This document shows, in pieces, positions 12,188-36,980 of a stretch of 41,991 nucleotides of DNA. A program made the translations under genes and the position numbers. The notes below the pieces were generated by a model, which saw nothing but the letters and a program-made list of their open reading frames with translations, was not told the origin of the DNA and ran no database searches. Origin of the DNA: Thermoanaerobaculia bacterium (GTDB taxonomy: Bacteria; Acidobacteriota; Thermoanaerobaculia; UBA5066; Gp7-AA6); the NCBI GenBank assembly GCA_035469365.1, contig DATIRW010000268.1, positions 1 to 41,991 on the forward strand, written 5' to 3'. Position 1 is the first letter of the stretch. Every line of letters begins with the position of its first letter.

Positions 12188-12215
12188 GCGGCCCCGGCGG
12201 AACCGGCCAAGTAGT

Positions 12216-14396: not shown

Positions 14397-14460
14397 ACGT
14401 CGCCAACCCTGCGGGGTTGCGCGCGGTTCCCGCGGCGGCTTCCGGTTGCCGCGATGGCTC

Positions 14461-15798: not shown

Positions 15799-17166
15799 TC
15801 ACAACTTCTCGAGCCGGCGGTAGAGGGCGCTGCGGGACAGGCCCAGGGCGCGCGCCGCCTGGCTGACGTTCCCCCCGTAGCGGGCCATCGCCTTCTGGAC
15901 GAGGAGCCTCTCGACGTCCTCCAGGCTCATCTGCTCGAGCGACGGGCCTCCGTCGCCCCCCGCGCGCAGGCCAAGGTCGCGCATCTCGATCGCGTTGCCG
16001 CTCGCCATGAGGGTCGCCCGCTCGACCGCGTGATCGAGCTCACGCACGTTGCCCGGCCAGGGATGGTCGAGCATCGCCTGGAGCGCCGAGGCCTCGAAGC
16101 GCTGGATGTTCTTTCGGTACCGGCGGGCGTGGCGCTGGAGAAAGTGGAGGGCCAGCCCGGGGATGTCCGCTCCGCGCTCGCGCAGCGGGGGGAGGCGGAT
16201 CTCGATCGTGTTCAAACGGAAGAGGAGGTCCTGGCGGAACCGTCCCGCGGCAACTTCCGCATGGATGTCGGCGTTCGTGGCCGAGAGCATCCGTACGTCC
16301 ACCTTCCGTGTGCGCGAGGAGCCCAGGCGCTCGAACTCTCCCGTCTCGAGGACTCTGAGGAGCTTGGCCTGCTGGCTCGCCGGCACGTTGGCGATCTCGT
16401 CCAGGAAGAGCGTGCCCCCGTCGGCCAGCTCGAACCGTCCGACGCGGTCGGCGCGGGCGTCGGTGAACGCGCCCTTGACGTGCCCGAAGAGCTCGCTCTC
16501 GAAGACGCCTTCGGAGATCCCGCCGGCGTTCAGCGTCACGAGCGGCCGGGAAGCGCGGCGCGACGCGGCGTGGAGGGCCCGCGCGACCATCCCTTTCCCG
16601 GTCCCGTTCTCTCCGATGATGAGGACGTTCGCGTCGGAAGGCCCGACCCGCTCGATCATCTCGAGCACGGGGCGCATGGCCGCCGACTGCGCGATCATCT
16701 CCGGCTCTCCGTCCTGGCGCAGGATCCGGTTCTCCGCCTCCAGCCGCTGCCCGCGGCGCAGCGCCCGCCCGAGCGCGATCTGCGTCCGCAGCGTCGTCAG
16801 CAGGCGCGTGTTGTCCCACGGCTTCTGGACGAAGTCGCGAGCCCCGCGCCGCATGGCCTCGACGGCGAGATCTACGGTCCCCCAGGCCGTCATGACGATG
16901 ATCGGCAGCGTCGCGTCGAGCTCGCGGATCCGCGCGAGAAGGTCGAGGCCCTCCTGACCCGACGTGGTATCCCGCGCGTAGTTCAGGTCCATGAGCACCA
17001 CGTCGTAATCCTTCGCCTCGAGCGCGGCGAGGACGCCGGCCGGGGACGTGGCCGTCTCGATCGCGAGGCCTTCGCCCTTGAGCAGGAGGCGCAGCGCCTC
17101 GAGCACGTCGCGCTGGTCGTCGGCGACGAGGACTCGGTCGGGAGAGGCCGTGTCTGACGTCTTCAC
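15799..17166 (-). CDS. Sigma-54-dependent response regulator (NtrC family: REC, AAA+, Fis-type HTH)
   Basis: 455 aa with a GTG start. The REC domain carries DVVLMDLNY. Walker A is GENGTGKG. ESELFGHVKGAFTDA is a variant of the GAFTGA sigma-54 contact loop. The C-terminal HTH is GNVSQAARALGLSRSALYRRL. Confidence 0.9.
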   Translation of the reverse strand: MKTSDTASPDRVLVADDQRDVLEALRLLLKGEGLAIETATSPAGVLAALEAKDYDVVLMDLNYARDTTSGQEGLDLLARIRELDATLPIIVMTAWGTVDLAVEAMRRGARDFVQKPWDNTRLLTTLRTQIALGRALRRGQRLEAENRILRQDGEPEMIAQSAAMRPVLEMIERVGPSDANVLIIGENGTGKGMVARALHAASRRASRPLVTLNAGGISEGVFESELFGHVKGAFTDARADRVGRFELADGGTLFLDEIANVPASQQAKLLRVLETGEFERLGSSRTRKVDVRMLSATNADIHAEVAAGRFRQDLLFRLNTIEIRLPPLRERGADIPGLALHFLQRHARRYRKNIQRFEASALQAMLDHPWPGNVRELDHAVERATLMASGNAIEMRDLGLRAGGDGGPSLEQMSLEDVERLLVQKAMARYGGNVSQAARALGLSRSALYRRLEKL

Positions 17167-17187
17167 AGTCCGGGAGCGGTACTGTCG

Positions 17188-17220
17188 TTACGGCTCAAAG
17201 TGGAAGACTTCATGCCGTAA
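17188..17220. promoter_or_regulatory. Inverted repeat TTACGGC-N19-GCCGTAA in the leader of the response regulator/kinase operon
   Basis: 7-bp perfect arms in the 114-bp gap between the ADOP stop (17281) and the regulator start (17166). Function unknown. Confidence 0.25.
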
Positions 17221-17280
17221 TTTACCGCGGATGGTCCACGGGCCCGCGCGGGGGTCATTCGGCGCGGAGAGCGCGTCATC

Positions 17281-19698
17281 TCACGGCGCGCGCAGCGCCT
17301 CGATCGGGTCCACCCGCGCGGCGTGCAACGCCGGCGCCGAAGAAGCGAGCAGCGAGGCGGCCAGCAGGAAGAAGGCGACGGACGCGAGGACCCCGGGATC
17401 GAACGGCCGGACTCCGAAGAGCAGGCTTCCGAGGAGCCGGCTCGCGGCGGCGGAGACAACGAGGCTGAGCGCGAGCCCGGCGGCCGAGGTCTTCAGGGCT
17501 TCCGAGACGACCATGAAGAGGACGCTCCGCCTGTCCGCTCCGAGCGCTATGCGGACGCCGATCTCGCGTGTGCGCTGCGCGATCCCGTACGACGTGACGG
17601 CGTAGAGGCCCGATCCCGCCAGCAGGAGGGCGAGCGCGGCGAAGATCACAAGCATGGAAGCGTAGAAGCGGGGCTGGGAAACCGTTTCTGAAACCGCCAG
17701 CTCGAGCGGCTGGATCTCGGAGATCGGTTGGTCCGGCTCGAGCCCTCGGATCGCGGCGCGCGCGGCCCCGGCGACGGAGAGGGGGTTGCCGGCCGTGCGC
17801 AGGAAGATCTTCAGCGAGCCGCGGGGAAAGCGGGACATCGGGACGTACATCGCGCCGCCGGCGGCTTCGCGCAGCCCCTCGTGCCGGACGTCCCCGGCGA
17901 CTCCGATAACCGCAAACGGCGCGCGCCCGAACTGGAGGATCCTTCCCAGCGGATCCTGGCCGGGCCAGAGCTGCCGGGCGAGCGCTCGGTTGACGACGAG
18001 GACGAGGGACTTCTTCATGAAATCCTCTTCCGTGAAGTCCCGTCCCCGGAGGATCGGGATCCCGAGCGCGGTGAAGTAGTCGGGAGTGACGATGAGCGCG
18101 CCGGAGGCCGGCTGGAAGAGCGCGAGATCCGGGCGTCCCGGGACCGAAACGCGATACGCCTCTCCTCCTCCGCTCAAGGGCATCGTCTTGCTGCCGCCGG
18201 CCGCCACCACTCCCGGAAGCGCGCGCATTCTCCGGAGCAGTTCCGACCGGTAGGCGGCCTCGCGGTCGAGCTCCGGGTATTTCCAGCCCGGAATCGTTAT
18301 GGAGAGCGCGAGGACCCGCTCGGTCTGAAGGCCGGAAGGGACCTGCATCAGCCGCCAGAAGCTCTTGGCGAGGAGTCCTGCTCCCGTCAGGAGAATCGCC
18401 GCGAGCACCGTCTCGGCGACGACGAGGCCGCGCCGCACGTCCCCCCGGGAATGCGTCTCGCCCCGTCCGCCGGCTTCGAGCGCCGGCGCGATGTTGGGAC
18501 GCATGGCGCGCCGCGCAGGCAGGAGCCCGAAGAGAAGTCCGGTCAGAAGAGAGACGCCGAGCGTGAAGGCGGCAACGGCGGCGTCCGGATGAATCTCGTT
18601 GGCGCGGGGGATGCGTCCGCCCGCCAGGGCCACGAGTCCCGCGACGCACCATTGCGCCGCGAGGAGCCCGAGGCCGCCGCCGAGAAGAGCGAGAAGGACG
18701 CTCTCCGTCAGGAGCTGGCGCGCGATCCGCGCGGGGCTTGCTCCGAGCGCCGTCCGGATGGCGATCTCGCGCCGCCGCGTGGCCGACCGGGCGAGCAGCA
18801 GGTTGGCCACGTTGCCGCACGCGATCAGAAGCACGAGGCAGACGGCGCCGAACAGAACGTAGAGCGGAGCGCGCACGTCGCCGAGAAGCGATGTCTCCAG
18901 CGGCACGACGAGGGCCTTCCCGAACCCCTGGTTGCTGTCGGGGTACTCCCGCTCGAGGCGTGCGAAGAGCGCGCTCGCGCCGGCCCGCGCCTGCTCCAGG
19001 GTTGCTCCCGGCGCCAGGCGCCCCACGACTTCGAGCCAGCGGACCGAGCGCCGGTGCGGGACGTCGTCTTCGGTCATGAGCGAAACGGGGACCCACAGGT
19101 CCACTTCCGATGAGGGAAACTGGAACGAGCGCGGCATGACGCCGACGACGGTGAACGGCTTTCCCTCGAGGACGAGCGTCGAGCCTACGGCGACTCCTCC
19201 GGTTCCGGAGAGCCGCGTCCGGAGGCGCTCGCTCACGACGGCGACGCGGTCCCGGCCCGGGGTGTTCTCCTCGCGGACAAGCGTGCGGCCTTCCGCCGCG
19301 GGAACGCCGAGTGTCTCGAAGAAGTCAGCGGACACGACGCAGGCCGAGACGCGCTCCGGCTCTCCCTTGCCGAGGAGGTTCATGCCGGAGAGGCCCGGGA
19401 CGAATTGATAGGCAGCCACGCGCGACAGGCCGGGCCGCTCCCGCGCGAGGTCGTCGAAGTCCTGAGGCGAGAAGCTCTGCCCCGGGCGCCCGCCTTCGGA
19501 GCGAACGTGCCCGATCCGCACGAGCCGCTCCGGTTCGAGGTACGGCAAAGCCCGGATGAGAACGCCCCGTACGACCGAGAAGATCGCCGTGTTGGCCCCG
19601 ATTCCCAGGGTGAGCGTGATGACGATGACCGCCGTGAAGCCCGGTGTCCTCGCGAAAGTGCGGAATGCGTAACGCACGTCCTGGAGGATCAGCGTCAT
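17281..19698 (-). CDS. ADOP-family permease (duplicated FtsX/MacB-like ABC permease), intact
   Basis: 805 aa. N-terminal signature LQDVRYAFRTFARTPGFTAVIVITLTLGIGANTAIFSVV. There are two FtsX modules, each preceded by a large periplasmic domain. The C-terminal AARVDPIEALR is typical of this family. Confidence 0.85.
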   Translation of the reverse strand: MTLILQDVRYAFRTFARTPGFTAVIVITLTLGIGANTAIFSVVRGVLIRALPYLEPERLVRIGHVRSEGGRPGQSFSPQDFDDLARERPGLSRVAAYQFVPGLSGMNLLGKGEPERVSACVVSADFFETLGVPAAEGRTLVREENTPGRDRVAVVSERLRTRLSGTGGVAVGSTLVLEGKPFTVVGVMPRSFQFPSSEVDLWVPVSLMTEDDVPHRRSVRWLEVVGRLAPGATLEQARAGASALFARLEREYPDSNQGFGKALVVPLETSLLGDVRAPLYVLFGAVCLVLLIACGNVANLLLARSATRRREIAIRTALGASPARIARQLLTESVLLALLGGGLGLLAAQWCVAGLVALAGGRIPRANEIHPDAAVAAFTLGVSLLTGLLFGLLPARRAMRPNIAPALEAGGRGETHSRGDVRRGLVVAETVLAAILLTGAGLLAKSFWRLMQVPSGLQTERVLALSITIPGWKYPELDREAAYRSELLRRMRALPGVVAAGGSKTMPLSGGGEAYRVSVPGRPDLALFQPASGALIVTPDYFTALGIPILRGRDFTEEDFMKKSLVLVVNRALARQLWPGQDPLGRILQFGRAPFAVIGVAGDVRHEGLREAAGGAMYVPMSRFPRGSLKIFLRTAGNPLSVAGAARAAIRGLEPDQPISEIQPLELAVSETVSQPRFYASMLVIFAALALLLAGSGLYAVTSYGIAQRTREIGVRIALGADRRSVLFMVVSEALKTSAAGLALSLVVSAAASRLLGSLLFGVRPFDPGVLASVAFFLLAASLLASSAPALHAARVDPIEALRAP

Positions 19699-19749
19699 GC
19701 TTGTGCCTCCTTCACCGTGAGCTTATTCACTCCGAAGCGCCTGCCGCCT

Positions 19750-22145
19750 TCACTCCGACCGCAGCGCGACGATCGGGTCGACACGGCTTGCGCGGCGCGC
19801 GGGCAGCCCGCTGGCGAGAAGCGTCGCGCCGAGAAGAACGGCGGCCATCGCGGCGTAGGTCGCCGGGTCGAACGCGCTGACGCCGAAGAGGAGCCTGGAC
19901 AGGTAGGCGCGGGCAAGCAGCGCGCCGCCGACCATGCCGAGGACGATGCCAATCGCGCCGAGCGTGGCGGCCTGGCGCAGGACGAGCCGGACAACGTCCC
20001 CCGGCCGCGCCCCGAGCGCGACGCGGACGCCGATCTCGCGGGTGCGCCGCGAGACCGCCTGCGAGATGACGCCGTACACGCCGACGGCCGCGAGGCCGAG
20101 CGCCAGCGCGGCGAAGAGCGCGAGCACCGTGTTTCGGCGCGCGGGCGAAGCCATCGAGGAGGCGAGGACCTCTTCCATCGTCGCGACCTCCGCGATCGGA
20201 AGATTCGGGTCGAGCGCCCGGACGGCGGCCTTGACGGAAGCGGTCAGCCGCAGGGGGTCGCCCTGCGCGCGGACCACGACGCTCGTCCAGCGCTGCCACT
20301 GCTGGAGCTTCTGCGAATAGGGGGTATAGACCGCCGGCCCTTCTCCCAGCGCGAGCCCGAGATGCCGCACGTCGCGCGCGACGCCGACGATCGTGATCCA
20401 ATCGGTCCCGGGCAGCCGAGCCCACCGGATCCTCGCTCCGATCGGGTCGCGGCCGCGGAAGAACTCGCGCGCCATCGTTTCGTTGACGACTCCGACGAGA
20501 GGCGCGCCTTCCCGATCCGATTCGGTGAATGCGCGTCCGCGCAGGATCCCGATTCCCATCGTCCGGAAGTAGGCGGAGCTTACGAGCCGCGTGTAGGCCG
20601 AGGGCTCCGCGCCCTTCGGGTAGACGGGGCCTCCCTCGACGACGACGTTGTGGTCGAGCGGAGAGCCGCCGACGGGCAGGTCGCTGATCAGCACCGCGCC
20701 GGTCACGCCGGGGAGAGCCGAAATCCTTTCCAGCAACGACCGGAGGAACCGGGTCTGAGGGGGGATCTCCGCGTAGCGCGTCTCCGGCAGGTCGAGGCGG
20801 AAGGTCAGCAAGCGTTCGGTCCGGAACCCGGATCGGCCGACGCCAGCCGGGAGAGCCCCTTGAAAAGAAGGCCGGCGCCGTTCAAGAGGACGAGCGCGAC
20901 GGCGATCTCCCAGACAACGAGACCGCGGCTGACGCGAGACTCGCGGAAGGTCCCGGCCCCTCGCCCCGCGAGGTTCTCGGCTCCGGCCTTGACGCGGGTG
21001 AGCTGAAGCGCGGGGAGGAGCCCGAAGAGAACGCCGGTCGCCACCGAGACTGTGAGCGCGAAGAGGAAGACACGGACGTCCAGATGCACCCGGGCGGCAA
21101 GGCGGGCGGAAACCGGAGGCAGCTTCGCCGCCAGCCCCTGCGCCCAGGCGGCCAGCACGAGACCGGCCGCGCCGCCGAGCGCCGAAAGCAGGACGCTCTC
21201 GGCGACGAGCTGGCGAACGAGCCGCGAGCGCCCCGCTCCGAGCGCCGATCGGATCGCGATCTCCCGGCTACGGCGGGCCGAACGGGACAGCAGGAGGTTG
21301 GCGAAGTTCGCGCAACTGATGAGAAGCACCACGAAGACAGCGGAAAAAAGCAGGAAGAGGGTCGGCCGCGATCTCGCCACGACCTGTTCCTGGAGCGGAA
21401 CCAGGCGGAAAGTCTGCTCTCCGTCTTCCTCCGGATGGATGTGCTTCAACTCGCCCACGATCGCGTCGAGTTCTGCCTGGGCCGACGCGAGAGAAACTCC
21501 GGGCGCCTGACGCGCGAACGAGCGCAGGAGGTGAGCTCCGCGCGCCGGCGCGGCCTCCGCCGCCGCGGCCTGGAACGGCAGCCAGATGTCGGCCACCGCG
21601 CGCGGAACCTCGAACGCCTCCGGCATGACGCCGGCAACCGTGTAGGGCTTGCCTCCGAGAAGCAGGACCCGGCCGAGGGCCGCCGGCTCGCCTGCGAGCT
21701 GAGCCTTCCAGAAGCCGTGACTGATGACAGCCACCGGCTCCGCGCCCGGCCGATCATCCGCCGGTGTGATCGTCCGGCCGAGCTCGGCCCTGCCGCCGAG
21801 CGCCTCGAATGTCTGGCCCGTCACGACCGCCGCCTGGACCCTCTCCGGCTCGGCGCCGTTGCCCCAGTCGAGCGGCCAGATCTGGGCCCCGGCCAGCTGC
21901 GCGAAGGAACGGCTCTGACGGGAGAGGTCCTCGAGGTCCGGCCCCGACTGGTTCGTCGTGAAGCCGGCGAGGCGCCCGGCGTCGGGATAGGGGAGAGGCC
22001 GGAGCAGGATCGCGTTGACGACGGAGAACATCGTCGTGTTGGCTCCGATCCCGAGCGCGAGTGTCAACACGGCCACGACCGTGAATCCCGGGTTCTTCCC
22101 GAGAGTCCTCAGCGCGTACCGGAGATCCCGCAGAAGCGCGCTCAC
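19750..22145 (-). pseudogene. ADOP-family permease interrupted by a single-base frameshift (or an assembly indel)
   Basis: ORFs 20805-22145 and 19750-20811 are the N- and C-terminal halves of one permease. The span is 2396 nt, which is 3n-1. Adding one base at gene-sense GAT CCG GGT TCC (plus ~20822-20831) gives ...[19 protein letters not shown]..., parallel to the junction in the intact paralogue. Confidence 0.75.
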
Positions 22146-22149
22146 CGTG

Positions 22150-22863
<714 letters not shown>

Positions 22864-22872
22864 CGGTTCACC

Positions 22873-25283
22873 TCATTCGTGTCTCAGAGCGGCCATCGGG
22901 TCGATGCGCGCCGCGCGGCGTGCCGGGATCCAGCTCGCCGCCATCGCCACCGCCGTGAGAACGAGGGCCACAGCAGCGAAGGACAGCGGGTCCGTCGGCG
23001 CGACGCCGAAGAGCATGGTCTTCAAGAGGCGCGTGGCCGCGACCGCGAGCGCCAGTCCCGCGAGGAGGCCCGCCCCCGCGAACCGCGCGCTCTCCCCGAG
23101 GAAGAGCGCGAGGACGTCCCGGCGACGCGCACCCAGGGCGATCCGGATGCCGACTTCGCGCACGCGCTGCCCGGCCAGGAACGCGACGACGCCGTAGATG
23201 CCGACCGCGGCGAGGAGAAGCGCGAGGCCGGCGAACGTGCCGAGCAGAAGCATCGTGAAGCGGCGCTGGCCGAGCGAACGGGCGACGACTTCCGAGAGCG
23301 CCTGGACCTCCTCGACCGGCAGCTTCGGGTCGAGCGAGCGGATCCTCGAGCGCACGGCCGGAGCGAGGCGCAGCGGATTCCCCTCGGACCGGACGAGGAT
23401 CGCCATTTCGTCCCAGGGCACCTGCTCGGCCGGCACGTAGAGCTCCGCCAGGGGAGGGTCCGCGAGGCCCTCCTCGAGCACGTTGCCGACGATCCCGACG
23501 ACGCGCCGGGCGCTTTGGCGCGGTCTCCAATCACGATCTCGCGCCCGATCGGGTCTTCTCCCGGGAAGTAGCGGCGGGCCAGCGTCTCGTTGACGAGCAT
23601 GACGAGCGGCGAGCCCGGCCGGTCTTCCGGAGTGAAGACCCGGCCCCGCTTGAGGGGGACTCCCGCCGCCGCGAAGAAGTCGCCGCCCACGACGCGGTAC
23701 GTGATCGAGGCCTCGTCCCCGGCCGGCACGGGATGGTCGAGAAACCTGACCGACAGCGTGTACTGCCGGCCGGTCACTGGCAGGAAGTTCGTCGTGCCGA
23801 CGGCCGCGACTCCCGGCAGCGAGGCCAGGCTCGCCGTCAGCTCGCGGTAGAAGGCCGCGATCTGCGGGGGCTCGGGGTAACGCGAGCTCGGCAGTTGGAG
23901 TTGGGCCGTCAGGACGCCTTGCGGGCGGATGCCGGGCTCCACGCGGAGGACCGCGGCCATGCTCCTCAGAAGCAGGGCGGCCCCGACGAGCAGGACGAGG
24001 GTCAGCGCGATCTCGGCTACGAGCATCGCCTGCCGCGCCGCCCCGGCCCGCGGCCCGTAGCCGGCCGACCCGGCGGAGGCGCGCAGCGCATCGCGGCCGG
24101 CCGGATAGGTCGCGCGCAGGGCCGGCCAGAGTCCCGCCGCCAGGGCGGTCGCGAGCGACACGGCGAGCGTGTAGAGGAGGACCCGCACGTCGATTCCGAC
24201 CTCCGCGCTGCGCGGCAGGCTGTCGCCCGCGAGCGCGACGAGCGTCTCGGCTCCCCACACGGCGAGCGCGACCCCGGCCGCGCCTCCGGCGAGGGCCAGC
24301 GCGAGGGTTTCCGTCAGCATCTGGCGCAGGAGCCGGACGCGGCCTGCCCCGAGCGCGCCGCGGATCGCGATCTCCCTCCTTCGGGACGTCCCGCGGGCGA
24401 AGAGCAGGTTCGCGACGTTCACGCAGGCGATGAGAAGCACGAATGTCACGGCTCCGAGCAGGAGCAGCAGGGGTTTCCGGGCGCTGCCCGCGATCGCCTC
24501 CTGGAGCGGGACCAGCACGACGCCCCAGCCGGCGTTCTTCTCCGGATAGGCGGCGGCGAGCCGCGCGGCGATCGCGGAGAGGTCGGCCTGCGCCGCCGCC
24601 GGCGAAACTTCCGGCCTTCTTCTGGCGACAACGCCGAGCCAGTGCGCGCCGCGGTTCTCGAGGGCCTTCGCGTCCAGAACGAGCGGCGTCCAGATGTCGG
24701 CGTCGCGGGAGGGGTAACGAAAACCGCGCGGCATGACGCCGCGGATAATCCGGCTCTTCCCGTCGAGGGAGATCGTCCGGCCGACGACGCCCGTGTCCCC
24801 GCCGAAACGCCGCTGCCAGAACTGCCAGGAGAGGAGGACGACCGGTTCGCGGCCGGGGTTCTCGTCCTCGGCGTCGAATGCGCGGCCGTAGAGCGGCGAG
24901 ACGCCCAGCACCGGGAAGAGGGCGGGAGAGACCGCGTAGCCGCGCAGGCGCAAGGGCTCGCCCTCGGCCGTCAGCGTCGCGTCGTCGCCGGTGAACGCGG
25001 CCATGCCGGCGAGCGTCGTGTTCTGCGCGCGCCAATCCACGAAATTGGGAGGGGACGCGCTGAACCGGTCGAAGCCCCGGCCGGGGTTGCTGTCCCAGAT
25101 CCGGACGAGCTCGCCGGGACGCGAGTACGCGAGCGGCCGCAACACCGCCGCGTCCACCACCGAGAAAACCGCCGTGTTGAAGCCGATGCCGAGCGCCAGC
25201 GTGACGACCGCCAGGACCGTGAACCCCGGACTCTTCCCCAGGGTCCGCAAAGCGTACTTGGCGTCCTGAACTAGAGCCGGCAT
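22873..25283 (-). pseudogene. ADOP-family permease interrupted by a single-base frameshift (or an assembly indel)
   Basis: ORF 23022-25283 is ADOP-like up to ...DPIGREIVIGDRAKAPG, then becomes Ser/Arg-rich nonsense. The frame of ORF 22873-25035 is ADOP-like from ...RRVVGIVGNVLEEGL to ...AARIDPMAALRHE. The span is 2411 nt, which is 3n-1. The shift lies near plus 23500-23515. Confidence 0.75.
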
Positions 25284-25319: not shown

Positions 25320-26063
25320 TCACAGCAGGCCCGCTTCTTTCAGCTCGTGTTCCGAGGCGGCGCGTTCCTGCCCGCTCTCGTCCTCGACGACGCGTCCGTC
25401 GAAGAGATGAATGGTGCGAGCGGCATAGCGGGCGAACCGGGGGTCGTGGGTGACCATGCAGATCGTGGCGCCCTCCTGGTGAAGGTCTCTCAAGAGGGAC
25501 ATGACGGCCTCGCCGTTGACCGAGTCGAGGTTCCCGGTCGGCTCATCCGCGAGGAGAATCAGGGGGTTCCCCGCGATCGCGCGCGCGACCGCGACGCGCT
25601 GCTGCTGCCCCCCCGAGAGCTGCGAAGGGAAGTGGTTGGTCCGGTGGGCCATGCCGACCTTCTCGAGGGCGTCGTGCACGCGTTTTCTCCGCTCCTGGGC
25701 CGGCATGCCGCGGTACGTCAGGGGCAGCTCGACGTTCTCGTAGACGGAGAGGTCTCCGATCAGATTGAAGCTCTGGAAGATGAAGCCGATCTCGCGGTTC
25801 CTTATGCGGGCCCTCTCGGCGAGCTTCAGCTTCTCCGCGGGCTTGTCGTTTAAGAGGTAGGCGCCGCTCGTGGGCGAGTCGAGGAGGCCCAGGATCGAGA
25901 GAAGCGTGGACTTGCCGCATCCCGAAGGGCCCGCGATCGAGATGAACTCGCCCTGCCGGATCTGCAGGTGCACGCCCGAGAGCGCGTGCGTTTCGACCTC
26001 GTCGGTGAAGAAGACCTTGGTCACGCCTTCGAGCCGGATGACCGAGTGCCCGTTGGTGCTCAT
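25320..26063 (-). CDS. ABC transporter ATP-binding protein (MacB-type)
   Basis: 247 aa. Walker [10 protein letters not shown], signature LSGGQQQR, Walker [14 protein letters not shown]-loop VTHD. Confidence 0.9.
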
Positions 26064-26082: not shown

Positions 26083-27342
26083 TCACTTCAGCCGGACGCG
26101 ATCGAACGCGTCCCACGCGGACATGTCGGAAAGAACGACCTTGTCTCCCGGCTTGATTCCTTCGAGGATCTGGACGGTGTTGACCGAGCTCTTGCCGAGG
26201 CGGACCTTCACGCGCACGGCCTCGTCGCTGCCGGGCTGGAGACGGAAAAGCGTGATCGAGCCCTGCTCGGACCCGAAGGCGGGGCGTCCGACGAAGACCA
26301 CGTCGGCCAGGTGCTCGAGCTCGATCGTGCCGTCCACGGAGAGGTCCGGCCGCGCGCCTTTCGGGAGCGGGCCGTCCAGCGCCACGTCCACCGTCACCGT
26401 TCCGCCCTGGACCGACGGGTCGATTCTCGAGACGTGCCCTTCGACGACGCCGTTGCGCGTGTCGATGGACGCGCGCTCGCCGATCTGGACATCGCGGGCC
26501 TGCGTCTCGGCGATCTTGAGCTGCGCCTTCAGTTTCTCCGGCTGCACGACCCGCGCGAGCGTCGTGCCGGAGGTCACGCGCTGTCCGGGCTGGACCGGGA
26601 TCTCCTGGAGCACGCCGCGGATGCCGGCGCGGACGCGCATCGCTTCCAGCTGGGAGCGCTTCAAGTGCGCGAGCGCCCGCAGCTGCTCGACGCGGGCCTC
26701 CTGCGCGTCCAGCTGCGCCTTCTCCGACTGGGAGTAGACGGCCAGGCGCTTCTTCTCGATCTCGTTGCGGGTGGCGAGCTCGCGGGCGCGCGTCTGCGAC
26801 AGCTTGAGTGTCAGCTGCGCCACGAGGCCTTCCTTGAAGAGACCCTCGTTGGTCTCCGCCTGGAGCTGCGCCTGGTGAAAGTCGGATTCGATGGTCGCGG
26901 CGGCCGCCTCCTGGTCGAGGAGCTCCTTCTGGAGCCTCACGCGCGTGTTGGCGAGATCGGCCTGCCCGGCCTTCAACTGCCAGTCGGCGTCGAGCGAGTC
27001 TCTCTCCAATTCGGGGTTGGACATCTCGAGCAGCACCGTGTCCGGCGCGACGGGAGCGCCCGCCTGGACGAGCAGCCGCTCGACCCGCGCGTCCGTCGAG
27101 GACGAGATCTGCCGGATTCCCTCCGTCTCGGGGACGAGCGAGCCCGGTCCGCGCACCTGGCGTTCCATCGGGCCGCGCTTGACGGAATCGATCCAGACGG
27201 TGCTCTTGTCCACGGTCGGCGCCGCCGGCTTCAGGCGCGAGAGTCCCAGCGTGATGAGGAGGACCGCGGCGACGCCGGCGCCGCCGATGAGGATGCGGCG
27301 GCGGCGCTTCTTTCTGGAGATGTCCTCCCTGACGATGTCCAT
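26083..27342 (-). CDS. HlyD/MacA-family periplasmic adaptor (membrane fusion protein)
   Basis: Starts at the ATG at 27342 (MDIVREDISRKKRRRRILIGGAGVAAVLLITLGL is a cytoplasmic tail plus TM). A long coiled-coil and a beta-barrel region follow. The 48 codons upstream in the track ORF have clearly lower third-position GC and contain a promoter-like motif. Confidence 0.8.
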   Translation of the reverse strand: MDIVREDISRKKRRRRILIGGAGVAAVLLITLGLSRLKPAAPTVDKSTVWIDSVKRGPMERQVRGPGSLVPETEGIRQISSSTDARVERLLVQAGAPVAPDTVLLEMSNPELERDSLDADWQLKAGQADLANTRVRLQKELLDQEAAAATIESDFHQAQLQAETNEGLFKEGLVAQLTLKLSQTRARELATRNEIEKKRLAVYSQSEKAQLDAQEARVEQLRALAHLKRSQLEAMRVRAGIRGVLQEIPVQPGQRVTSGTTLARVVQPEKLKAQLKIAETQARDVQIGERASIDTRNGVVEGHVSRIDPSVQGGTVTVDVALDGPLPKGARPDLSVDGTIELEHLADVVFVGRPAFGSEQGSITLFRLQPGSDEAVRVKVRLGKSSVNTVQILEGIKPGDKVVLSDMSAWDAFDRVRLK

Positions 27343-27361
27343 AGTTCCGTCGCTCGTATGG

Positions 27362-27376
27362 GCGAGAACCGTGCCA
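27362..27376 (-). promoter_or_regulatory. Candidate sigma-54 (-24/-12) promoter upstream of the HlyD/ABC/ADOP genes
   Basis: The minus-strand sequence is TGGCACGGTTCTCGC, against the consensus TGGCACG-N4-TTGC. GG and GC have the canonical spacing and there is one mismatch in the -12 element. It lies 19 nt upstream of the ATG at 27342. A sigma-54 activator is encoded in the same gene block. Confidence 0.55.
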
Positions 27377-27457
27377 TGCACGGCCCAGGCTAAGTCACTG
27401 ATACGGAAGGGGAGAGTGAGGGTTCTCCGAAGTCCTCTGAGCGGCTGTGGGACGGGG

Positions 27458-27475
27458 CTGTCCGAAAACGGACAG
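27458..27475. promoter_or_regulatory. Perfect palindrome CTGTCCG-AAAA-CGGACAG: either a terminator-like hairpin after the repeat-protein gene or an enhancer-binding-protein site
   Basis: 7-bp arms and a 4-nt spacer, read directly. It starts 15 nt after the stop at 27490 and its centre is ~90-115 bp upstream of the candidate sigma-54 promoter/start. No U-tract follows on the minus strand. Confidence 0.4.
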
Positions 27476-27489
27476 GGGATCGACAATCG

Positions 27490-28629
27490 TCAATCGCGCC
27501 CGTGGATCTTCATGTCGACGAGCTCATCCACGGTGACGTCGTTGTGGCGCTCCTTCATCCTCTTGACGTAATCGATCGTGACGCCGTGGATGCGCATCGA
27601 GACGAGCTCCTCGACGGGCACGTGCCGGTAGCCGAGCTCCTGGAGCTTTCGGACGAACTCCGGCGACACTCCATGGATGCGCATGCTCACGAGCTCTTCG
27701 ACGGGCAGCCTCTCGTACCCGAGGTCCTTCATCTCCCGGACGAACTCCGGGTTGGCGCCGTGGATGCGCATGCTGACGAGGCCTTCGACGGGCAGCCGCT
27801 CGTAGCCCAGGGCCTTCAGCTCCCGAATGAACTCCGGGCTCGCGCCGTGGATGCGCATGCTGACGAGCTGCTCGACGGGCAGCCGGTCATAGCCCAGTGC
27901 CTTCAATTCTCGGATGAACTCGGGGCTCGCGCCGTGGATGCGCATGTTGATGAGCCCTTCGATGGGGAGATGCTCGTAGCCCAGGGCCTTCAGCTCCCGG
28001 ATGAACTGGGGGCTCGCGCCGTGGATGCGCATGTTGATGAGCCCTTCGACGGGGAGATGCTCGTAGCCCAGGGCCTTCAACTCCCGGATGAACTCCGGGC
28101 TCGCCCCATGGATCCGCATCGAGATGAGGCGCTCGGCCGGAAGGCGCTCGTAGCCGAGCGAGCGCAGTTCATCGAGGAACTGACGGCTGACGTCGTGCAT
28201 CGTGAACGAAAACGACTCGTCCGGCCCGAGGCTCGAGTAACCGAGCGATCTCCAGTACTTGTCGAACTCGGGATTGGCGGCGAACTGGAAGCGGCCGGAG
28301 CCGCCCAACTCGTCCAGCTCCCCGTCGAAGCGGATCGTCCCGGCGTCCCGCGCCATCTCGAAATGCGCCGGCCGCGCGGCCTTTCCAGCCGGGCGGGAGA
28401 GGCCGCGGAAGTCGGCCAGGGAGTAGGAGGACGAGTTGTTCCAGTCTCCATGCGAGGAACTGCGCCGGATGGTGAGCTGAACGCGGCCGTCTTCCCTGTC
28501 GAAGTCGAGCAGCCATCGCCCCTCGAAGGTCTGTCCCGGCGCCGGCGTGGGCGCTGCGAGGAGGAGCGAAAGCAGGATTGCGAGGACGATCCCGCTGGGA
28601 CGCAACAGTGGTGTCCGGTGCCTGGTCAT
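27490..28629 (-). CDS. Secreted protein with an N-terminal unknown domain and 7-8 tandem 29-aa RIHG repeats (paralogue of the C-terminal domain of the adjacent M56 protein)
   Basis: The ATG at 28629 has GGGAGG 5 nt upstream and overlaps the upstream stop (ATGA). The signal peptide is MTRHRTPLLRPSGIVLAILLSLLLAAPTPAPGQ. The repeats are of the type LPVEGLxSMRIHGASPEFIRELKALGYEx. The protein ends ...VDMKIHGRD. Confidence 0.8.
   Translation of the reverse strand: MTRHRTPLLRPSGIVLAILLSLLLAAPTPAPGQTFEGRWLLDFDREDGRVQLTIRRSSSHGDWNNSSSYSLADFRGLSRPAGKAARPAHFEMARDAGTIRFDGELDELGGSGRFQFAANPEFDKYWRSLGYSSLGPDESFSFTMHDVSRQFLDELRSLGYERLPAERLISMRIHGASPEFIRELKALGYEHLPVEGLINMRIHGASPQFIRELKALGYEHLPIEGLINMRIHGASPEFIRELKALGYDRLPVEQLVSMRIHGASPEFIRELKALGYERLPVEGLVSMRIHGANPEFVREMKDLGYERLPVEELVSMRIHGVSPEFVRKLQELGYRHVPVEELVSMRIHGVTIDYVKRMKERHNDVTVDELVDMKIHGRD
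27493..28215. repeat. Tandem 87-bp coding repeats (29-aa RIHG repeats), 7-8 copies
   Basis: The word GTGGATGCGCAT or a close variant recurs at 27586, 27673, 27760, 27847, 27934, 28021 and 28108, exactly 87 nt apart. Units 27934-28020 and 28021-28107 differ at only about 6 of 87 positions by manual alignment. Confidence 0.9.
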
Positions 28630-30716
28630 CGATTCCTCCCATGAATCCGCCTGGAAACGAGCTCGTCGATCGAGAGCCGCGCGCCGGCGGATGCGTTGGC
28701 CTTGCGGATGAACTCGGGCGTGGCGCCGTGGATGCGCAGGGCGGTGAGCTCGTCGACCGAAGGGGCGGCGTATCCGAGCGACTGGACCTCCTTGACGAAG
28801 TCGGGCGTGACGCCGTGGATTCGGCAGGCGACGGCATCGTCGGTGGAGAGTTTCGTGTATCCGAGCGAACGCATGTCGCGGACGAACTCCGGCGTGACGC
28901 CATGGATGCGCAGGCCGACGAGGGCGTCGAGGTCCGCGTCGAGCCCGAGCGAGCGCATCTCGCGCGCGTACTCCGGCGTGGCGCCGTGGATCCGCGCCGA
29001 CACGATCTCGTCGAGGCCGGGCTTGCGGCCGGTGATGGTCGCCCATTGTGTCGCGTCGTCCGGATCGACGCCGTGAATCCGAAGAGAGACGGCGTCGTCG
29101 GCCGAGATCTGCGGATATCCCGCCTCGTGGAAGTGCCGCACGAACTCGGGCGTGACTCCGTGGATTCGGAGCGAGACGATCTCATCGAGCGACTGCTTCC
29201 CGATGAGCGCCGTCATCTCCGAGACGTATTCCGGAGACACGCCGTGGATCCTGAGCGCGAGCAGGTCCTGGACCGTGGCCTGCTTGAAGCCGAGTGCGGC
29301 GAGCGCCGCGAGGAACTCGGGCGTGACGCCGTGCCGGCGCAGGCTGGCCAGGTCCTCGGGAGAGAGTCTGACCTCACTCTGCGCGGATGCCGTCTTTTTT
29401 TCTTCGCCGTCCGCTTCGACGCCTCCCTCGATGCCGCCGGAGACGCCGCCCCCAACGCCCTCTTCGACGCCTCCGGAAACGCCTCCCGCGATCCTGCCCG
29501 CGACGCCCGACACCCGGGCCGCGCGCCGGGCGGCGGTCACCGGATTCTCCTTTTGCAGGCGGGGGGTTTGCGCGGCCGGCACGGCATTCGTGGGCTCGGC
29601 CGGAGGGACTGGCAAGCCGACCGCGACGGCCGGCGAGTCTTCGAAGAAGGACGAGCGCTCCGCGGCCCCGACCGTGGCGACCATCGCCAGGGCGAGGAGC
29701 CCGGCGAGCCACCTCGGGGCGTCCTCGGCCAGCGAAGGGGATGGGAAGGAGGAAGCCGGCATCAGCCTCGCGACGCGCCGCCAGAGGGAAGCGCCGTCGG
29801 CCGCCACCGCCGGGCCGGGTGCCGCCAGCCGCGGAGCGCGGATCTCCTCGAGTACGACCAGGGCGCGGACGTATCCACGGGAGTCTCCGGTCGCGACGAC
29901 GGCCAGGTCGTCGCAGCAGTTCTCCCTTTCGATCCGGATCCGGCGGGAGACCCACCAGACGGCCGGATGGTAGAAGAGGAGCGTCTCCGCCGCCGTCTGC
30001 AGCAGGTTGACGAGGTAGTCGTGCCGGCGGATGTGGGCGAGCTCGTGAGCGAGCACCGCCTCGATCGCCTCCGGTGACAGGCCCGTGACGGCGCACGCGG
30101 GCAGGAGGATCGCCGGGCGCAGGACGCCGAGCGCCGTCGAAACGCTCACTCGCAACGACTCCAGGAGAAGGACCGGGCGTCGAACGCCGAGCCGGTCGCG
30201 AAGAAGCCCGAGAACGGCCTCCAGGGCCGCGGGCACGGGGCGGACGCCCTTGAGCGGGAGTCTCCGTGCGGCATTCCATCCGGCGAGGAACCGCGCCGAA
30301 AGCAGGAAGACACCGCACAGCCATGCCGGCACGATCCACGGTGCGAGCCACGCCGCGCTCGCCTGGAAGGCGCGCGCGATCCGTCCGGATTCGGGAGCGG
30401 CGCCGGCCCACACCCGCTTCGCGGCTAAATCGTGACGCAAGGGCTCTCCGGCCGGGGCCGGGGAGACGCCGACAGGGGCGGAACGAGGGGCCGGGGACTC
30501 GCGGTGGCCCAGATAGGTGACGGCCGGCAGGAGCACCATCAGCAGCAGAGCCGCGCAGCCGGCGGCGTAGCGCGCTCGAGGATCCCTCCGGGAGAGCAGG
30601 GCGTTGACGCAGGACAGAATCGCGGCGACGAGCGTTCCCTGCCAGAGAAAGGCGGCCAGCGCCCAGCCGAGCCTCCGGAAAGCCGGGGTCGCGAACAACA
30701 GGGCCAGGTCTTTCAT
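28626..30716 (-). CDS. BlaR1/MecR1-like M56 family membrane metalloprotease signal transducer with a non-canonical C-terminal repeat sensor domain
   Basis: 696 aa with several N-terminal TM helices. The zinc motif is HELAHIRRHD with a downstream ENCCDD. A further TM follows, then a Gly-rich linker (GGVSGGVEEGVGGGVSGGIEGGVE). About 9 repeats of the type xLRIHGVTPEFV... then end in RIHGRNR. No penicillin-binding domain is visible. Confidence 0.85.
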   Translation of the reverse strand: MKDLALLFATPAFRRLGWALAAFLWQGTLVAAILSCVNALLSRRDPRARYAAGCAALLLMVLLPAVTYLGHRESPAPRSAPVGVSPAPAGEPLRHDLAAKRVWAGAAPESGRIARAFQASAAWLAPWIVPAWLCGVFLLSARFLAGWNAARRLPLKGVRPVPAALEAVLGLLRDRLGVRRPVLLLESLRVSVSTALGVLRPAILLPACAVTGLSPEAIEAVLAHELAHIRRHDYLVNLLQTAAETLLFYHPAVWWVSRRIRIERENCCDDLAVVATGDSRGYVRALVVLEEIRAPRLAAPGPAVAADGASLWRRVARLMPASSFPSPSLAEDAPRWLAGLLALAMVATVGAAERSSFFEDSPAVAVGLPVPPAEPTNAVPAAQTPRLQKENPVTAARRAARVSGVAGRIAGGVSGGVEEGVGGGVSGGIEGGVEADGEEKKTASAQSEVRLSPEDLASLRRHGVTPEFLAALAALGFKQATVQDLLALRIHGVSPEYVSEMTALIGKQSLDEIVSLRIHGVTPEFVRHFHEAGYPQISADDAVSLRIHGVDPDDATQWATITGRKPGLDEIVSARIHGATPEYAREMRSLGLDADLDALVGLRIHGVTPEFVRDMRSLGYTKLSTDDAVACRIHGVTPDFVKEVQSLGYAAPSVDELTALRIHGATPEFIRKANASAGARLSIDELVSRRIHGRNR
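28629..29351. repeat. More divergent 84-87-bp coding repeats encoding ~9 RIHG repeats at the C-terminus of the M56 protein
   Basis: The protein-level repeats are LRRHGVTPEF, LRIHGVSPEY, LRIHGVTPEF, LRIHGVDPDD, ARIHGATPEY, LRIHGVTPEF, CRIHGVTPDF, LRIHGATPEF and RRIHGRNR, spaced 28-29 aa apart. Confidence 0.85.
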
Positions 30717-31105
30717 CGCTTGCCTCCCTCCATGGCGTCGAGCAGCTCCCGGATGCGCGCGAGCTCCTGCGGCGAGGCCTTCTTCGAAGACAGGGCGCGC
30801 AGGACGAGCGCCGACGCGGATCCCGCGAAGGCGCGGTCGAGCAGGTCGGTCACGAGCTGCCGCTCCGTCTCCTCGCGCGGAACGCGCGCCGCGTACACGT
30901 GCGCGCGCTCGGTCTCGTCCCGCCGGACGAGCCCCTTCTCGGTCATGATCTGGAGGAGCTTCAGGACCGTCGTGTAACCGGTCGGCCGCCGCGCCTCCAG
31001 GGTGTCATGGACCTCGCGGACCGTGGATTCCCCCCGCTCCCAGAGGACGCGCAGGATCTCCAGCTCTCCGTCCGTGGGCCGGGGCGTTTTCTTAGGGATC
31101 TTCAT
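30713..31105 (-). CDS. BlaI/MecI/CopY-family winged-helix transcriptional repressor
   Basis: 130 aa. The pattern ELEILRVLWERGESTVREVHDTL...GYTTVLKLLQIMTEKGLV is typical of the Penicillinase_R family. Its stop overlaps the M56 gene start (ATGA). Confidence 0.9.
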   Translation of the reverse strand: MKIPKKTPRPTDGELEILRVLWERGESTVREVHDTLEARRPTGYTTVLKLLQIMTEKGLVRRDETERAHVYAARVPREETERQLVTDLLDRAFAGSASALVLRALSSKKASPQELARIRELLDAMEGGKR

Positions 31106-31124
31106 CGGCGTTCCATCCTCGTCA

Positions 31125-31154
31125 TACGAAGAAACTAGTACGAAGTTTTTCGTA
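31125..31154. promoter_or_regulatory. Candidate BlaI operator: TACGAA half-site (31125-31130) plus the palindrome TACGAA-GTTT-TTCGTA (31139-31154)
   Basis: This is an AT-rich patch in a GC-rich genome, 20-50 bp upstream of the repressor start codon. The palindrome is perfect (6+4+6). It is reminiscent of the TACA/TGTA dyads bound by BlaI/MecI/CopY repressors. Confidence 0.5.
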
Positions 31155-31160
31155 TATCAA
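31132..31160 (-). promoter_or_regulatory. Candidate sigma-70 promoter of the blaI-like operon
   Basis: The minus strand reads TTGATA (31160-31155), a 17-nt spacer, then TAGTTT (31137-31132). The spacer contains the TACGAA/TTCGTA palindrome. Confidence 0.4.
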
Positions 31161-31164
31161 GGCA

Positions 31165-31305
31165 AAAGGTGTCAGGGGACGGGTATCAGGGAAAAGGCAG
31201 GTATCAGGTGCCAGGTATCAGGGGTCAGGGACAGAGCTCCGAACCTGGCACCTGACCCCTGATACCTGAAACCTGCTCCCCTGACCCCTCCGACCTGACA
31301 CCTTC
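31165..31305. repeat. Heptamer-palindromic element in the divergent blaI-like / spermidine-synthase-like promoter region
   Basis: CAGG recurs every 7 nt on the left arm and CCTG every 7 nt on the right arm. A 16-bp perfect inverted repeat pairs GGTATCAGGGGTCAGG (31214-31229) with CCTGACCCCTGATACC (31251-31266). An outer 11-bp inverted repeat pairs AAGGTGTCAGG (31167-31177) with CCTGACACCTT (31294-31304). Confidence 0.85.
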
Positions 31306-31331
31306 CCCCTGTGTTAACGTCCCTCATCTCC

Positions 31332-36893: not shown

Positions 36894-36980
36894 AAGGTGG
36901 TGGGTGATAGGTGGACGGTGGCAGGGACGAGGGCTCTCGGGCCTTCCCTGACACCTGATACCTGACACCTGACACCTAAC
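36894..36980. repeat. Heptamer-palindromic element between rpsI and rpsB
   Basis: The left arm is AAGGTGG TGGGTGA TAGGTGG ACGGTGG CAGGGAC, followed by a 15-nt loop. The right arm is TTCCCTG ACACCTG ATACCTG ACACCTG ACACCTA. The period is exactly 7 nt on both arms. Confidence 0.85.

Follow-up and report, generated by a model that had tools for sequence, protein, structure and literature searches.

The subject of this analysis is a set of three consecutive genes in a 41,991-nucleotide (nt) stretch of DNA from a Thermoanaerobaculia bacterium (contig DATIRW010000268.1; the whole stretch is referred to as the window). The genes encode a BlaI-type repressor, a BlaR1-like membrane protease of family M56 and a secreted protein, and the latter two carry the same tandem repeat, here called the RIHG repeat.

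30713-31105, minus strand: blaI-type repressor gene, open reading frame (ORF) of 130 amino acids (aa)
28626-30716, minus strand: M56 protease gene, ORF of 696 aa
27490-28629, minus strand: secreted partner gene, 379 aa from the ATG at 28629

The mechanical ORF of the third gene reaches 29046, and only the start at 28629 yields a protein with a signal peptide, that is, an N-terminal hydrophobic segment. On the coding strand, both junctions read ATGA (30713-30716 and 28626-28629), and the three genes are one translationally coupled unit; the order of repressor and then M56 gene is found in more than 60 related loci. A first-pass annotation of this DNA had described this chain with its overlaps, a 130-aa repressor of the BlaI/MecI/CopY type, a 696-aa BlaR1-like protease with the motif HELAHIRRHD, a Gly-rich linker followed by about nine degenerate repeats of 28-29 aa, and a 379-aa protein with a signal peptide and the same repeat. 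The ORFs, the two junction sequences, the Pfam matches and the positions of the motifs reported below confirm these descriptions, and the signal peptide is likewise predicted here.

The repressor matches PF03965 (Penicillinase_R) over residues 11-123 (E-value 2e-29). Its best match in the PDB is M. tuberculosis BlaI (2g9w, E 6e-13), S. aureus BlaI (1sd4) follows with 6e-7 and MecI with 8e-6, and the alignments to S. aureus BlaI and to MecI are free of gaps. The C-terminal CxCxxxxCxC motif of CopY-type repressors is absent, the repressor sequence containing no cysteine, and the CopY model TIGR02698 scores 55 bits on it against a cut-off of 122. Two palindromic sites lie in front of the gene:

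31139-31154: probable BlaI operator TACGAAGTTTTTCGTA, a perfect 16-bp palindrome (TACGAA-N4-TTCGTA)
31125-31140: second operator copy TACGAAGAAACTAGTA, degenerate, with two mismatches and a 2-nt overlap with the first

The first site lies 34 nt ahead of the blaI start codon and is the sole perfect match within the window. A second site in tandem, of the form TACTA..N..TCGTA and 14 nt away from the first, is found in related loci as well (L001, L009, L010, L012, L014, L015, L023, L024, L028, L030 and L054). In 1.49 Mb of such loci, TACGA[AC]-N4-[TG]TCGTA occurs 29 times and each time directly upstream of a blaI homologue (29/29, Myxococcus included). No further operator was found elsewhere in the window or within 10 kb on either side in the related loci, distant regulon members not having been searched. 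Judged from this sequence context, TACGAAGTTTTTCGTA is the probable operator bound by BlaI.

In the second protein, Pfam recognizes PF05569 (Peptidase_M56) at residues 127-315 only (E 2.3e-25), and the following parts can be distinguished (TM, transmembrane helix):

30018-30047, minus strand: zinc motif HELAHIRRHD, residues 224-233, with H224, E225, H228 and D233
29637-29714, minus strand: TM4, residues 335-360, an AlphaFold2 helix
29376-29636, minus strand: periplasmic tether, residues 361-447 (~87 residues), disordered and Pro/Ala/Gly-rich
28629-29375, minus strand: protease solenoid, residues 448-696, ~8.5 units of 28-29 aa

The family profile matches S. aureus BlaR1 over residues 32-323 (E 2.8e-16), and the profile alignment pairs the following residues:

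BlaR1 H201ExxH205: window H224, E225, H228
BlaR1 D210: window D233
BlaR1 E242xxxD246: window E265, D269
BlaR1 Y261: window Y282
BlaR1 R293: window R314

These BlaR1 residues have critical roles according to the BlaR1 structural paper (PMC9834060), and because all of them have counterparts here, the 696-aa protein is an M56 protease of the BlaR1 family. Invariance was scored in two alignments, of 40 and of 18 homologues: H224, E225, H228, E265, D269 (the latter two forming ExxxD), Y282 and R314 are invariant in both, and D233 is conserved in 39/40 and 18/18. The AlphaFold2 model of the protease, built with 40 homologues (mean predicted local distance difference test score, pLDDT, of 82), has helices at residues 11-40, 46-70, 109-152 and 335-360 and a compact domain that contains the zinc site. 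Searched with Foldseek, it retrieves the cryo-electron microscopy structures of S. aureus BlaR1 (8exq, 8exp, 8exs and 8exr) with probability 1.00 (8exq_A, E 9e-4; 8exr_A, TM-score 0.55 on the target and root-mean-square deviation 4.0). The predicted structure has four transmembrane helices and the BlaR1 fold, with the protease domain between TM3 and TM4 expected to be cytoplasmic; a positively charged loop (residues 41-50) lies between TM1 and TM2. With the topology taken by homology from BlaR1 (PMC9834060), TM4 places the C-terminus of the protease outside the cytoplasm. The tether that follows includes the Gly-rich linker GGVSGGVEEGVGGGVSGGIEGGVE from residue 411 (nt 29415-29486); pLDDT is below 50 at residues 355-447, and the segment is of low complexity and variable length in all aligned homologues.

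No penicillin-binding domain was detected in the M56 protein: there is no Pfam match past residue 315 save one sub-threshold fragment at 485-502, and the NCBIfam BlaR1 model (blaR1_generic, NF000326) reaches 72.8 bits, its cut-off being 400, and matches nothing but residues 120-276. The window protease is not a beta-lactam sensor. This feature alone is unsurprising, as only ~6% of M56 proteins have a penicillin-binding domain (PMC13492132) and its absence is the rule.

S. aureus BlaR1 cuts itself between S283 and F284 and BlaI between N101 and F102, with Phe at P1' in both (PMC9834060). At the aligned autocleavage position the protease family reads L302-A-x-A305/A306-x-G-G, the slash marking the aligned cut (A306 in 35/40, L302 in 29/40). 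In the repressor, R103 and A104 are aligned with the BlaI cleavage site and the N-F pair is lost; 71 family members share the local motif L-[VM]-[ML]-[HQR]/A-L (A104 in 63/71, L100 in 66/71). The change of P1' from Phe to Ala and the Leu at P4, both seen in both substrates, are indirect evidence that the two cleavages may persist with altered specificity.

The RIHG solenoid and the secreted protein

The repeat has a period of 28-29 aa and the core LxxLRIHG-VTPEF, and the 29-aa unit consensus GVTPEFIRELKALGYKDLSADDLVSMRIH summarizes 1,854 units taken from 263 proteins. In the M56 protein the motif appears as RRHG at residue 460 and as RIHG at 489, 517, 546, 575, 603, 632, 661 and 690, and the chain ends RIHGRNR. 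AlphaFold2 folds this region confidently at residues 453-692 (pLDDT ~97) into a solenoid with two helices per repeat. The secreted protein is composed as follows:

28534-28629, minus strand: signal peptide, from hydrophobicity and alignment
28276-28533, minus strand: beta domain of six strands, about residues 33-118
27493-28275, minus strand: secreted-protein solenoid of nine units, residues 119-379

The hydrophobic segment of the predicted signal peptide spans residues 6-32 and is present in 42/42 aligned homologues. Eight [RK]IHG motifs, 28-29 residues apart, lie between residues 172 and 374, preceded by a degenerate unit (MHDV) upstream of the first and followed by the end KIHGRD. The AlphaFold2 model (43 sequences; pLDDT 92, predicted TM-score 0.79) consists of the signal-peptide helix, the six-strand beta domain and eighteen helices; the models of the two proteins have pLDDT values of 92-97 for the solenoid. 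Their repeat domains are 38% identical over 248 aa (BLASTP E 2e-67), far above chance.

In the beta domain, G37, W39, R94, D95, A96, G97, F101, G103, G112 and F116 are invariant across the stand-alone homologues. No Pfam or NCBIfam model covers any part of the secreted protein, and nearly all of its more than 2,361 homologues are named "hypothetical"; the beta domain alone, used as a single-sequence query, retrieved only two close relatives, in a search whose sensitivity is limited by its word index. A match of the beta-domain motif RDAGxxxFxG...GxGxFxF (family profile residues 71-150) to residues 47-118 of PhiC31 integrase (4bqq, E 1e-3) is probably due to chance. As a separate observation, four consecutive repeats of the secreted protein (27490-28275) are almost identical, reading YE[HR]LP[VI]EGLINMRIHGASP[EQ]FIRELKALG, with the protease repeats diverged, which suggests recent unit amplification or concerted evolution. 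Near-identical doublets of 58 aa are also seen in a beta-solenoid homologue from a cultured actinomycete, Actinomadura sp. WMMA1423 (NZ_CP041244.1; L067, 9998-10915), whose ORF lacks a signal peptide; they suggest recent amplification or transfer.

The repeat does not correspond to a named domain. No Pfam or NCBIfam model covers it, the only matches being fragments of 12-20 aa of which no stretch is significant alone, and Foldseek found no natural solenoid structure in the PDB at E <= 1e-3 with either model; the best matches of the solenoid were the designed repeat protein 8v2d and, weakly, the TALE-like BurrH. A literature search returned no description of the RIHG repeat or of this architecture. 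The Pfam names attached to the repeats (LYTB, DUF433, Skp1, ATG5_UblB, DUF5817_CT and UBA) are spurious products of the 12-20-aa fragments, and because fragment scores are summed over repeats, homologues including P0001 and P0004 bear database names such as '4-hydroxy-3-methylbut-2-enyl diphosphate reductase' and 'DUF433 family'. Metal sensing by a ladder of histidines was considered as a family-wide function and rejected: the RIHG His is replaced in distant members (RSQG, KVQG, RAVG, SRYDV), and the repressor has no Cys motif.

The family is large. An exhaustive phmmer search with the C-terminal 257 residues of the protease against 1.84 billion cluster representatives (50%-identity clusters) gave 3,522 clusters at E <= 1e-3, 2,178 at E <= 1e-10 and 669 at E <= 1e-30. 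A scan of species-representative genomes found at least 491 coding stretches, and Acidobacteriota (Thermoanaerobaculia, Blastocatellia, Vicinamibacteria, Bryobacterales and Acidoferrum) supply most of the best 80, among which are also Rhodothermia, Myxococcus eversor and an Actinomadura strain. The protease and secreted solenoids form two separate classes: the best match of a sequence is of its own class in 106/110 cases, and the partner from the same locus is the best cross-class match in only 8/110, from which it follows that both paralogues have been maintained side by side over the long term.

Linkage of the protease and secreted genes across loci

Two samples of loci were compiled, 80 genome loci found via the secreted protein and 80 metagenome loci found via the M56 catalytic motifs, and their ORFs were sorted by phmmer with probes of each kind (BlaI, M56 domain, beta domain and repeats). 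A locus was taken as informative if it held an M56-repeat gene without a beta domain and at least 1 kb of downstream sequence; the closest relatives of the window were left out. In all 57 informative loci (31/31 from genomes and 26/26 from metagenomes) a gene for a beta domain plus repeats lies directly downstream on the same strand, and the tally becomes 59/59 if two relatives are included. The linked loci span several classes of Acidobacteriota, Rhodothermia and Myxococcus. The gap between the M56 and secreted genes has an estimated median of ~30 nt, with frequent overlap. The secreted gene is present as a tandem double copy in 10/57 loci, nine of them in the genome set and largely from Blastocatellia and Pyrinomonadaceae. 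The phmmer probe missed the beta domain in 6/57 loci; the one inspected, from Myxococcus, has the domain by reading.

In a second form, the beta domain is inserted into the M56 protein itself, between the tether and the repeats. This fused form accounts for 37/97 M56 members in the protein sample, and none of the fused loci has an adjacent stand-alone gene (0/6; L072, L097, L169, L171, L172 and L173). Fisher's exact test gives p = 1e-8 overall (with the 59/59 count) and 6e-6 for the unbiased M56-centred sample alone. The beta-plus-solenoid module thus comes in one of two arrangements, within the protease itself or on the gene that follows a solenoid-only protease. The window is of the split type, its beta domain (GxW...RDAGxxxFxG...GxGxFxF) lying on the next gene. 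The strictness of this fused-or-adjacent pattern leads us to read the secreted protein as a detachable half of the sensor, as the pattern suggests.

These results bear on further proposals of the first-pass annotation. Its "soluble paralogue of the sensor" stands as far as the paralogous repeats go and falls as a simple soluble copy, the secreted solenoid being an ancient class of its own with an added beta domain. It had not recognized the repeat as a named domain, which agrees with the searches, and the co-conservation of the M56-repeat gene and the secreted paralogue, whose absence it had named as a refutation, is seen in the 31/31 and 26/26 loci. A regulatory link between repressor and protease finds support in the ATGA overlap, in an operator confined to the blaI promoter and in the retained catalytic signature residues of BlaR1. 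Checks on a known domain, on co-conservation and on the regulatory link all came out in favour of the proteolytic switch that it had proposed. Among the three roles it had offered for the free protein (co-receptor, decoy or ligand shuttle), that of co-receptor is favoured, as the secreted protein supplies the beta domain that is fused into the sensor elsewhere.

Two groups of loci showed deviating arrangements. In Acidoferrum-type loci (L038-L045, L049, L050 and L059) the stand-alone beta-solenoid gene and a second operon meet tail-to-tail; this operon in L050 (9971-15795) comprises, by Pfam, blaI, a sensor-less M56 gene of 326 aa and a 992-aa CarboxypepD_reg/OMP beta-barrel gene; in the others, the blaI homologue, in the corresponding place, was all that was detected. 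In L006/L030 (L006, 3736-6004) and in L028 (8815-10498), the M56 part and the repeat part of the M56-solenoid gene fall into separate ORFs, for which a frameshift, a fault in the assembly or genuine fission could be responsible.

Transporter genes and other surroundings

Downstream of the operon the window contains a MacAB-type set by Pfam, with an HlyD-type adaptor, an ABC ATPase and permeases with MacB core and FtsX:

27458-27475, minus strand: hairpin CTGTCCG-TTTT-CGGACAG, perfect over 7 bp, 15 nt past the stop of the secreted gene
26083-27486, minus strand: MacA-like membrane-fusion gene, likely start ATG 27342 (HlyD_D23, E 8.5e-16; HlyD_3)
25320-26063 and 22150-22863, minus strand: ABC ATPases (ABC_tran, E 5e-34)
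23022-25283, 20805-22145 and 17281-19698, minus strand: MacB_PCD/FtsX permeases, MacB_PCD and FtsX being found in three permeases

The same cluster order recurs in L001-L004, L009, L010, L012, L014, L015, L024, L028, L054 and L119. Further triads flanked by transporter genes are L070 and L093, in which MacA/ABC/FtsX also directly follow the secreted gene, L082, L085 and L170, in which the transporter genes precede blaI, and L169, in which they follow the fused sensor. Most triads outside the Thermoanaerobaculia-like group have no adjoining transporter. The first-pass annotation had placed the operon next to a MacAB efflux cluster; this is true of the window, and the link is limited to Thermoanaerobaculia-like relatives. 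In relatives, the gap between secreted and MacA genes is sometimes as short as 7-60 nt (for example in L010, L014, L024 and L009), and no second operator precedes the MacA gene of the window. The gene order suggests that the MacA gene is possibly co-transcribed with the sensor genes and that the MacAB/FtsX genes are a probable lineage-specific output of the switch. The hairpin has no U-tract and was not flagged by the terminator scan; by its sequence it may act as an attenuator or RNA stabilizer before the MacA gene.

Outside Thermoanaerobaculia we found no common downstream output gene, the neighbours being heterogeneous (kinase-TPR, DsbH-like, PfkB, DnaJ, ADH and, twice, DUF5916). The two loci with a DUF5916 protein after the triad are unrelated (L077, 11030-13642; L144, 7099-9711), and the Myxococcus eversor copy carries an additional CBM9 domain. 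Farther downstream of the ABC/FtsX genes in the window, the minus strand at 12216-17166 encodes three more regulators: a response regulator dependent on sigma-54 (15799-17166), a histidine kinase (14461-15798) and, at 12216-14396, a 726-aa protein that combines a DNA-binding domain of the OmpR type with a PD40 beta-propeller.

A dispersed intergenic element made of 7-nt units (CAGGTRT) was observed at 2502-2698, 31160-31310 and 36947-36978 of the window; the probe CAGGTATCAGGGGTCAGG has 11 matches with at most three mismatches, against none in 100 shuffles. Between blaI and a divergent spermine-synthase-like gene the element is arranged as an imperfect palindrome (31197-31276), each arm being 40 nt long. 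Rfam returned only sub-threshold hairpin look-alikes, and the element may be of the repetitive extragenic palindromic (REP) type.

A proposed two-piece receptor, its rivals and known systems

We interpret the operon as a regulated-proteolysis switch of the BlaI/BlaR1 type with a new, two-piece extracytoplasmic receptor, and assign this reading a probability of about 0.55. The two sensor parts share a compartment, given the position of the C-terminal domain of the protease after TM4 and the signal peptide on the partner. According to the mechanism that we propose, a BlaI dimer at TACGAA-N4-TTCGTA would repress the operon, which in this lineage probably reads through into the MacAB/FtsX genes. 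The protease would display its solenoid in the periplasm on the flexible tether of ~87 residues, and the soluble beta-solenoid protein would dock on it in the manner of a periplasmic-binding-protein co-sensor. A ligand other than a beta-lactam may then alter the docking contact, the beta domain being the likelier ligand site, and the signal would pass TM4 to activate the cytoplasmic gluzincin site. Going by the alignments, the protease would cut its own loop at about A305/A306 and then BlaI at about R103/A104, and repression would be lifted.

Several observations weigh against this reading. The genome sample was ascertained via the secreted protein, so that only the 26 metagenome loci are unbiased, and the fused examples examined number only six. 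The repeat numbers of the partners are uncorrelated (Spearman 0.08) and the charges of the solenoids are non-complementary, both being mildly acidic with a median net charge of -5; neither measure is informative as a signature of a heterodimer. At the aligned P4 of the autocleavage site, the window's own protease has Pro instead of Leu. The hairpin lies in the 147-nt gap between the secreted and MacA genes, which may speak against the co-transcription of MacAB. About 45 of the 80 stand-alone loci from species-representative genomes have no adjacent BlaI/M56 gene, and the syntenic loci L020, L026 and L027 keep the secreted gene and MacAB with BlaI/M56 gone (at about 10000-20900, in the order FolD, secreted beta-solenoid gene, MacA, ABC, FtsX). 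Because of such loci the secreted protein must also work alone, which keeps effector and carrier roles in play.

One rival explanation regards the secreted beta-solenoid protein as the induced output, a periplasmic binder or decoy for the molecule sensed by the tethered solenoid, in parallel to the bla system, where the sensor domain is related to the beta-lactam-binding enzymes that are induced. It would account for a sole operator within 10 kb on either side at the blaI promoter, for operons that mostly consist of blaI, M56 and one or two secreted genes, for the tandem secreted copies in 10/57 informative loci and for the many stand-alone homologues without a nearby M56 gene. In operons of the fused form there is, however, no separate secreted gene (0/6), so that the module cannot be the output there; the strict fused-or-adjacent pattern is what one functional unit should show, and BlaI-family repressors can control distant genes too. 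We therefore consider an output role unlikely, if still a serious contender. A primary function as periplasmic carrier or adaptor for MacB-type ABC machines (compare LolA/LolCDE), in which the protease solenoid would monitor the loading of this carrier and transporter expression would be adjusted by flux sensing like that of BceAB-BceS, appears improbable to us. The transporter genes adjoining the triads of the window and of the other loci listed above, the loci that retain the secreted gene and MacAB without blaI/M56 and weak lipocalin-like Foldseek matches of the beta domain point towards it, but most triads beyond the Thermoanaerobaculia-like group lack a neighbouring transporter, FtsX-type permeases are common (~10/45 unrelated 20-kb loci have one) and the lipocalin matches are not significant (E 0.08-0.3, TM-score <= 0.22).

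We give rather less credit still to a merely inherited gene order without sensing by the repeats, in which the solenoid would serve as a structural spacer or as an anchor, for example to the outer membrane or the cell wall, and some other input would control the protease. That the gene order is kept at M56 identities down to 23-27% and across phyla, that fused-or-adjacent complementarity points to function and that the C-terminal extracytoplasmic domain is the sensor in characterized BlaR1 (PMC9834060) all argue otherwise. What a spacer would explain is the lack of an identifiable ligand site, the resemblance of the conserved repeat residues (G, T/S-P-E, R, H) to helix caps and packing residues, the presence in distant members of Q, V, Y or F where the RIHG His would stand, the computationally designed, idealized protein 8v2d as the best structural match and a disordered tether like periplasm-spanning linkers. 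Finally, the RIHG repeats might be distant relatives of TALE-like repeats and recognize a linear polymer, for instance extracellular DNA, with each repeat reading one unit. The best PDB sequence for the family profile is indeed the TALE repeat protein 9jo8_A (E 3e-9, through HG-LTPEQV against HG-VTPEFV), and BurrH (4cj9) is the best natural solenoid by Foldseek (probability 0.85, TM-score 0.30, E 0.17). The E-value of 3e-9 is, however, inflated, as the weak matches of ~17 near-identical TALE repeats are summed: against the hidden Markov model of the 1,854 repeats, one TALE repeat by itself scores 0.9 bits, a value equalled by 80 of 20,000 shuffles, and the second-best sequence match, nearly as good, is a protein designed de novo, for which homology is impossible. 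We thus reject TALE homology and, the domain being periplasmic and mildly acidic, regard polymer reading as very improbable.

Beyond the proposed two-piece receptor itself, a more ambitious proposal may be stated tentatively: this could be the first BlaR-family sensor that works via a separate periplasmic partner, which would dock on the tethered solenoid of the protease and gate intramembrane signalling, with the partner also serving MacB machines in the lineage of the window, so that the protease reads transporter load in a flux-sensing circuit. We think it unlikely as a whole; if true, it would provide a mechanism for a large unannotated M56 class of soil Acidobacteriota together with a new ligand-binding fold. 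New here are the defined sensor fold, the operator and an obligatory third component in the periplasm, a paralogue of the sensor for which a fused form can stand in. Few one-step transmembrane signalling systems of soil bacteria are commoner than pairs of M56 and BlaI, and most such pairs have "no identifiable" sensor domain (PMC13492132). One large class (at least 3,522 clusters at 50% identity) is now drawn from this uncharacterized M56 majority and gains a defined repeat fold, an operator and an obligatory third component. Two predictions follow, namely mutual binding of the two periplasmic proteins from the fused-or-adjacent pattern and a shifted cleavage specificity from the matching Phe-to-Ala change at P1' in protease and repressor. 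The triad of the cultured Myxococcus eversor AB053B and the stand-alone homologue of Actinomadura sp. WMMA1423 offer experimental hosts, and misnomers such as LytB/IspH reductase and DUF433 would be put right by a curated model of the domain.

Compared with BlaR1-BlaI of S. aureus and B. licheniformis and with MecR1-MecI, the window system shares the gene pair of repressor and membrane protease, a four-TM M56 gluzincin with HExxH and ExxxD and the equivalents of D210, Y261 and R293, an extracytoplasmic sensor after TM4, a winged-helix repressor of PF03965 and a palindromic operator at its own promoter. It differs in having, instead of a penicillin-binding domain, a tethered alpha-solenoid and an obligatorily linked secreted partner, and in the aligned P1' residue, which is Ala in the window family and Phe in S. 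aureus. Neither a beta-lactamase nor a PBP2a gene is present here; the local output would be MacAB/FtsX or nothing past the operon. BlaIR-family systems with non-beta-lactam sensors are known to regulate other traits (PMC13492132; bioRxiv 10.64898/2026.08.03.742534), and CenIR (PMC13492132) and PvmSR (bioRxiv 10.64898/2026.08.03.742534) are tied to non-antibiotic functions. C. difficile CenIR, P. aeruginosa PvmSR and M. tuberculosis BlaI/BlaR (Rv1846c/Rv1845c) resemble the window system in combining an M56 protein without a transpeptidase-type domain with a BlaI-like repressor and in responding to non-beta-lactam cues. Their C-terminal regions are short, largely disordered or absent, and no periplasmic partner has been described for them, whereas the window protease carries a confidently folded repeat domain of ~250 aa and is co-encoded with a paralogue of it.

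TALE/BurrH and designed helical-repeat proteins, the nearest by profile and by Foldseek, are likewise two-helix tandem-repeat solenoids, and TALE/BurrH share the junction motif HG-[LV]-T-P-E-x-V. The RIHG unit, however, has 29 aa instead of 33-35 and no loop of the repeat-variable diresidue (RVD) type, and TALE proteins bind nucleic acid in the cytoplasm or nucleus, whereas TM4 and the signal peptide place the acidic RIHG domains outside the cytoplasm; since a protein designed de novo matches equally well, the resemblance points to convergence.

In LuxP-LuxQ, TorT-TorS and ChvE-VirA, a soluble periplasmic protein, encoded beside a membrane transducer, is the ligand-binding half of the receptor, and some such binding proteins, for example ChvE, also serve a transporter. 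The window system differs from these in that its transducer is a protease and not a histidine kinase, and in that its partner is a beta-domain-plus-solenoid protein and not a Venus flytrap, one that is moreover paralogous to the transducer's own sensor.

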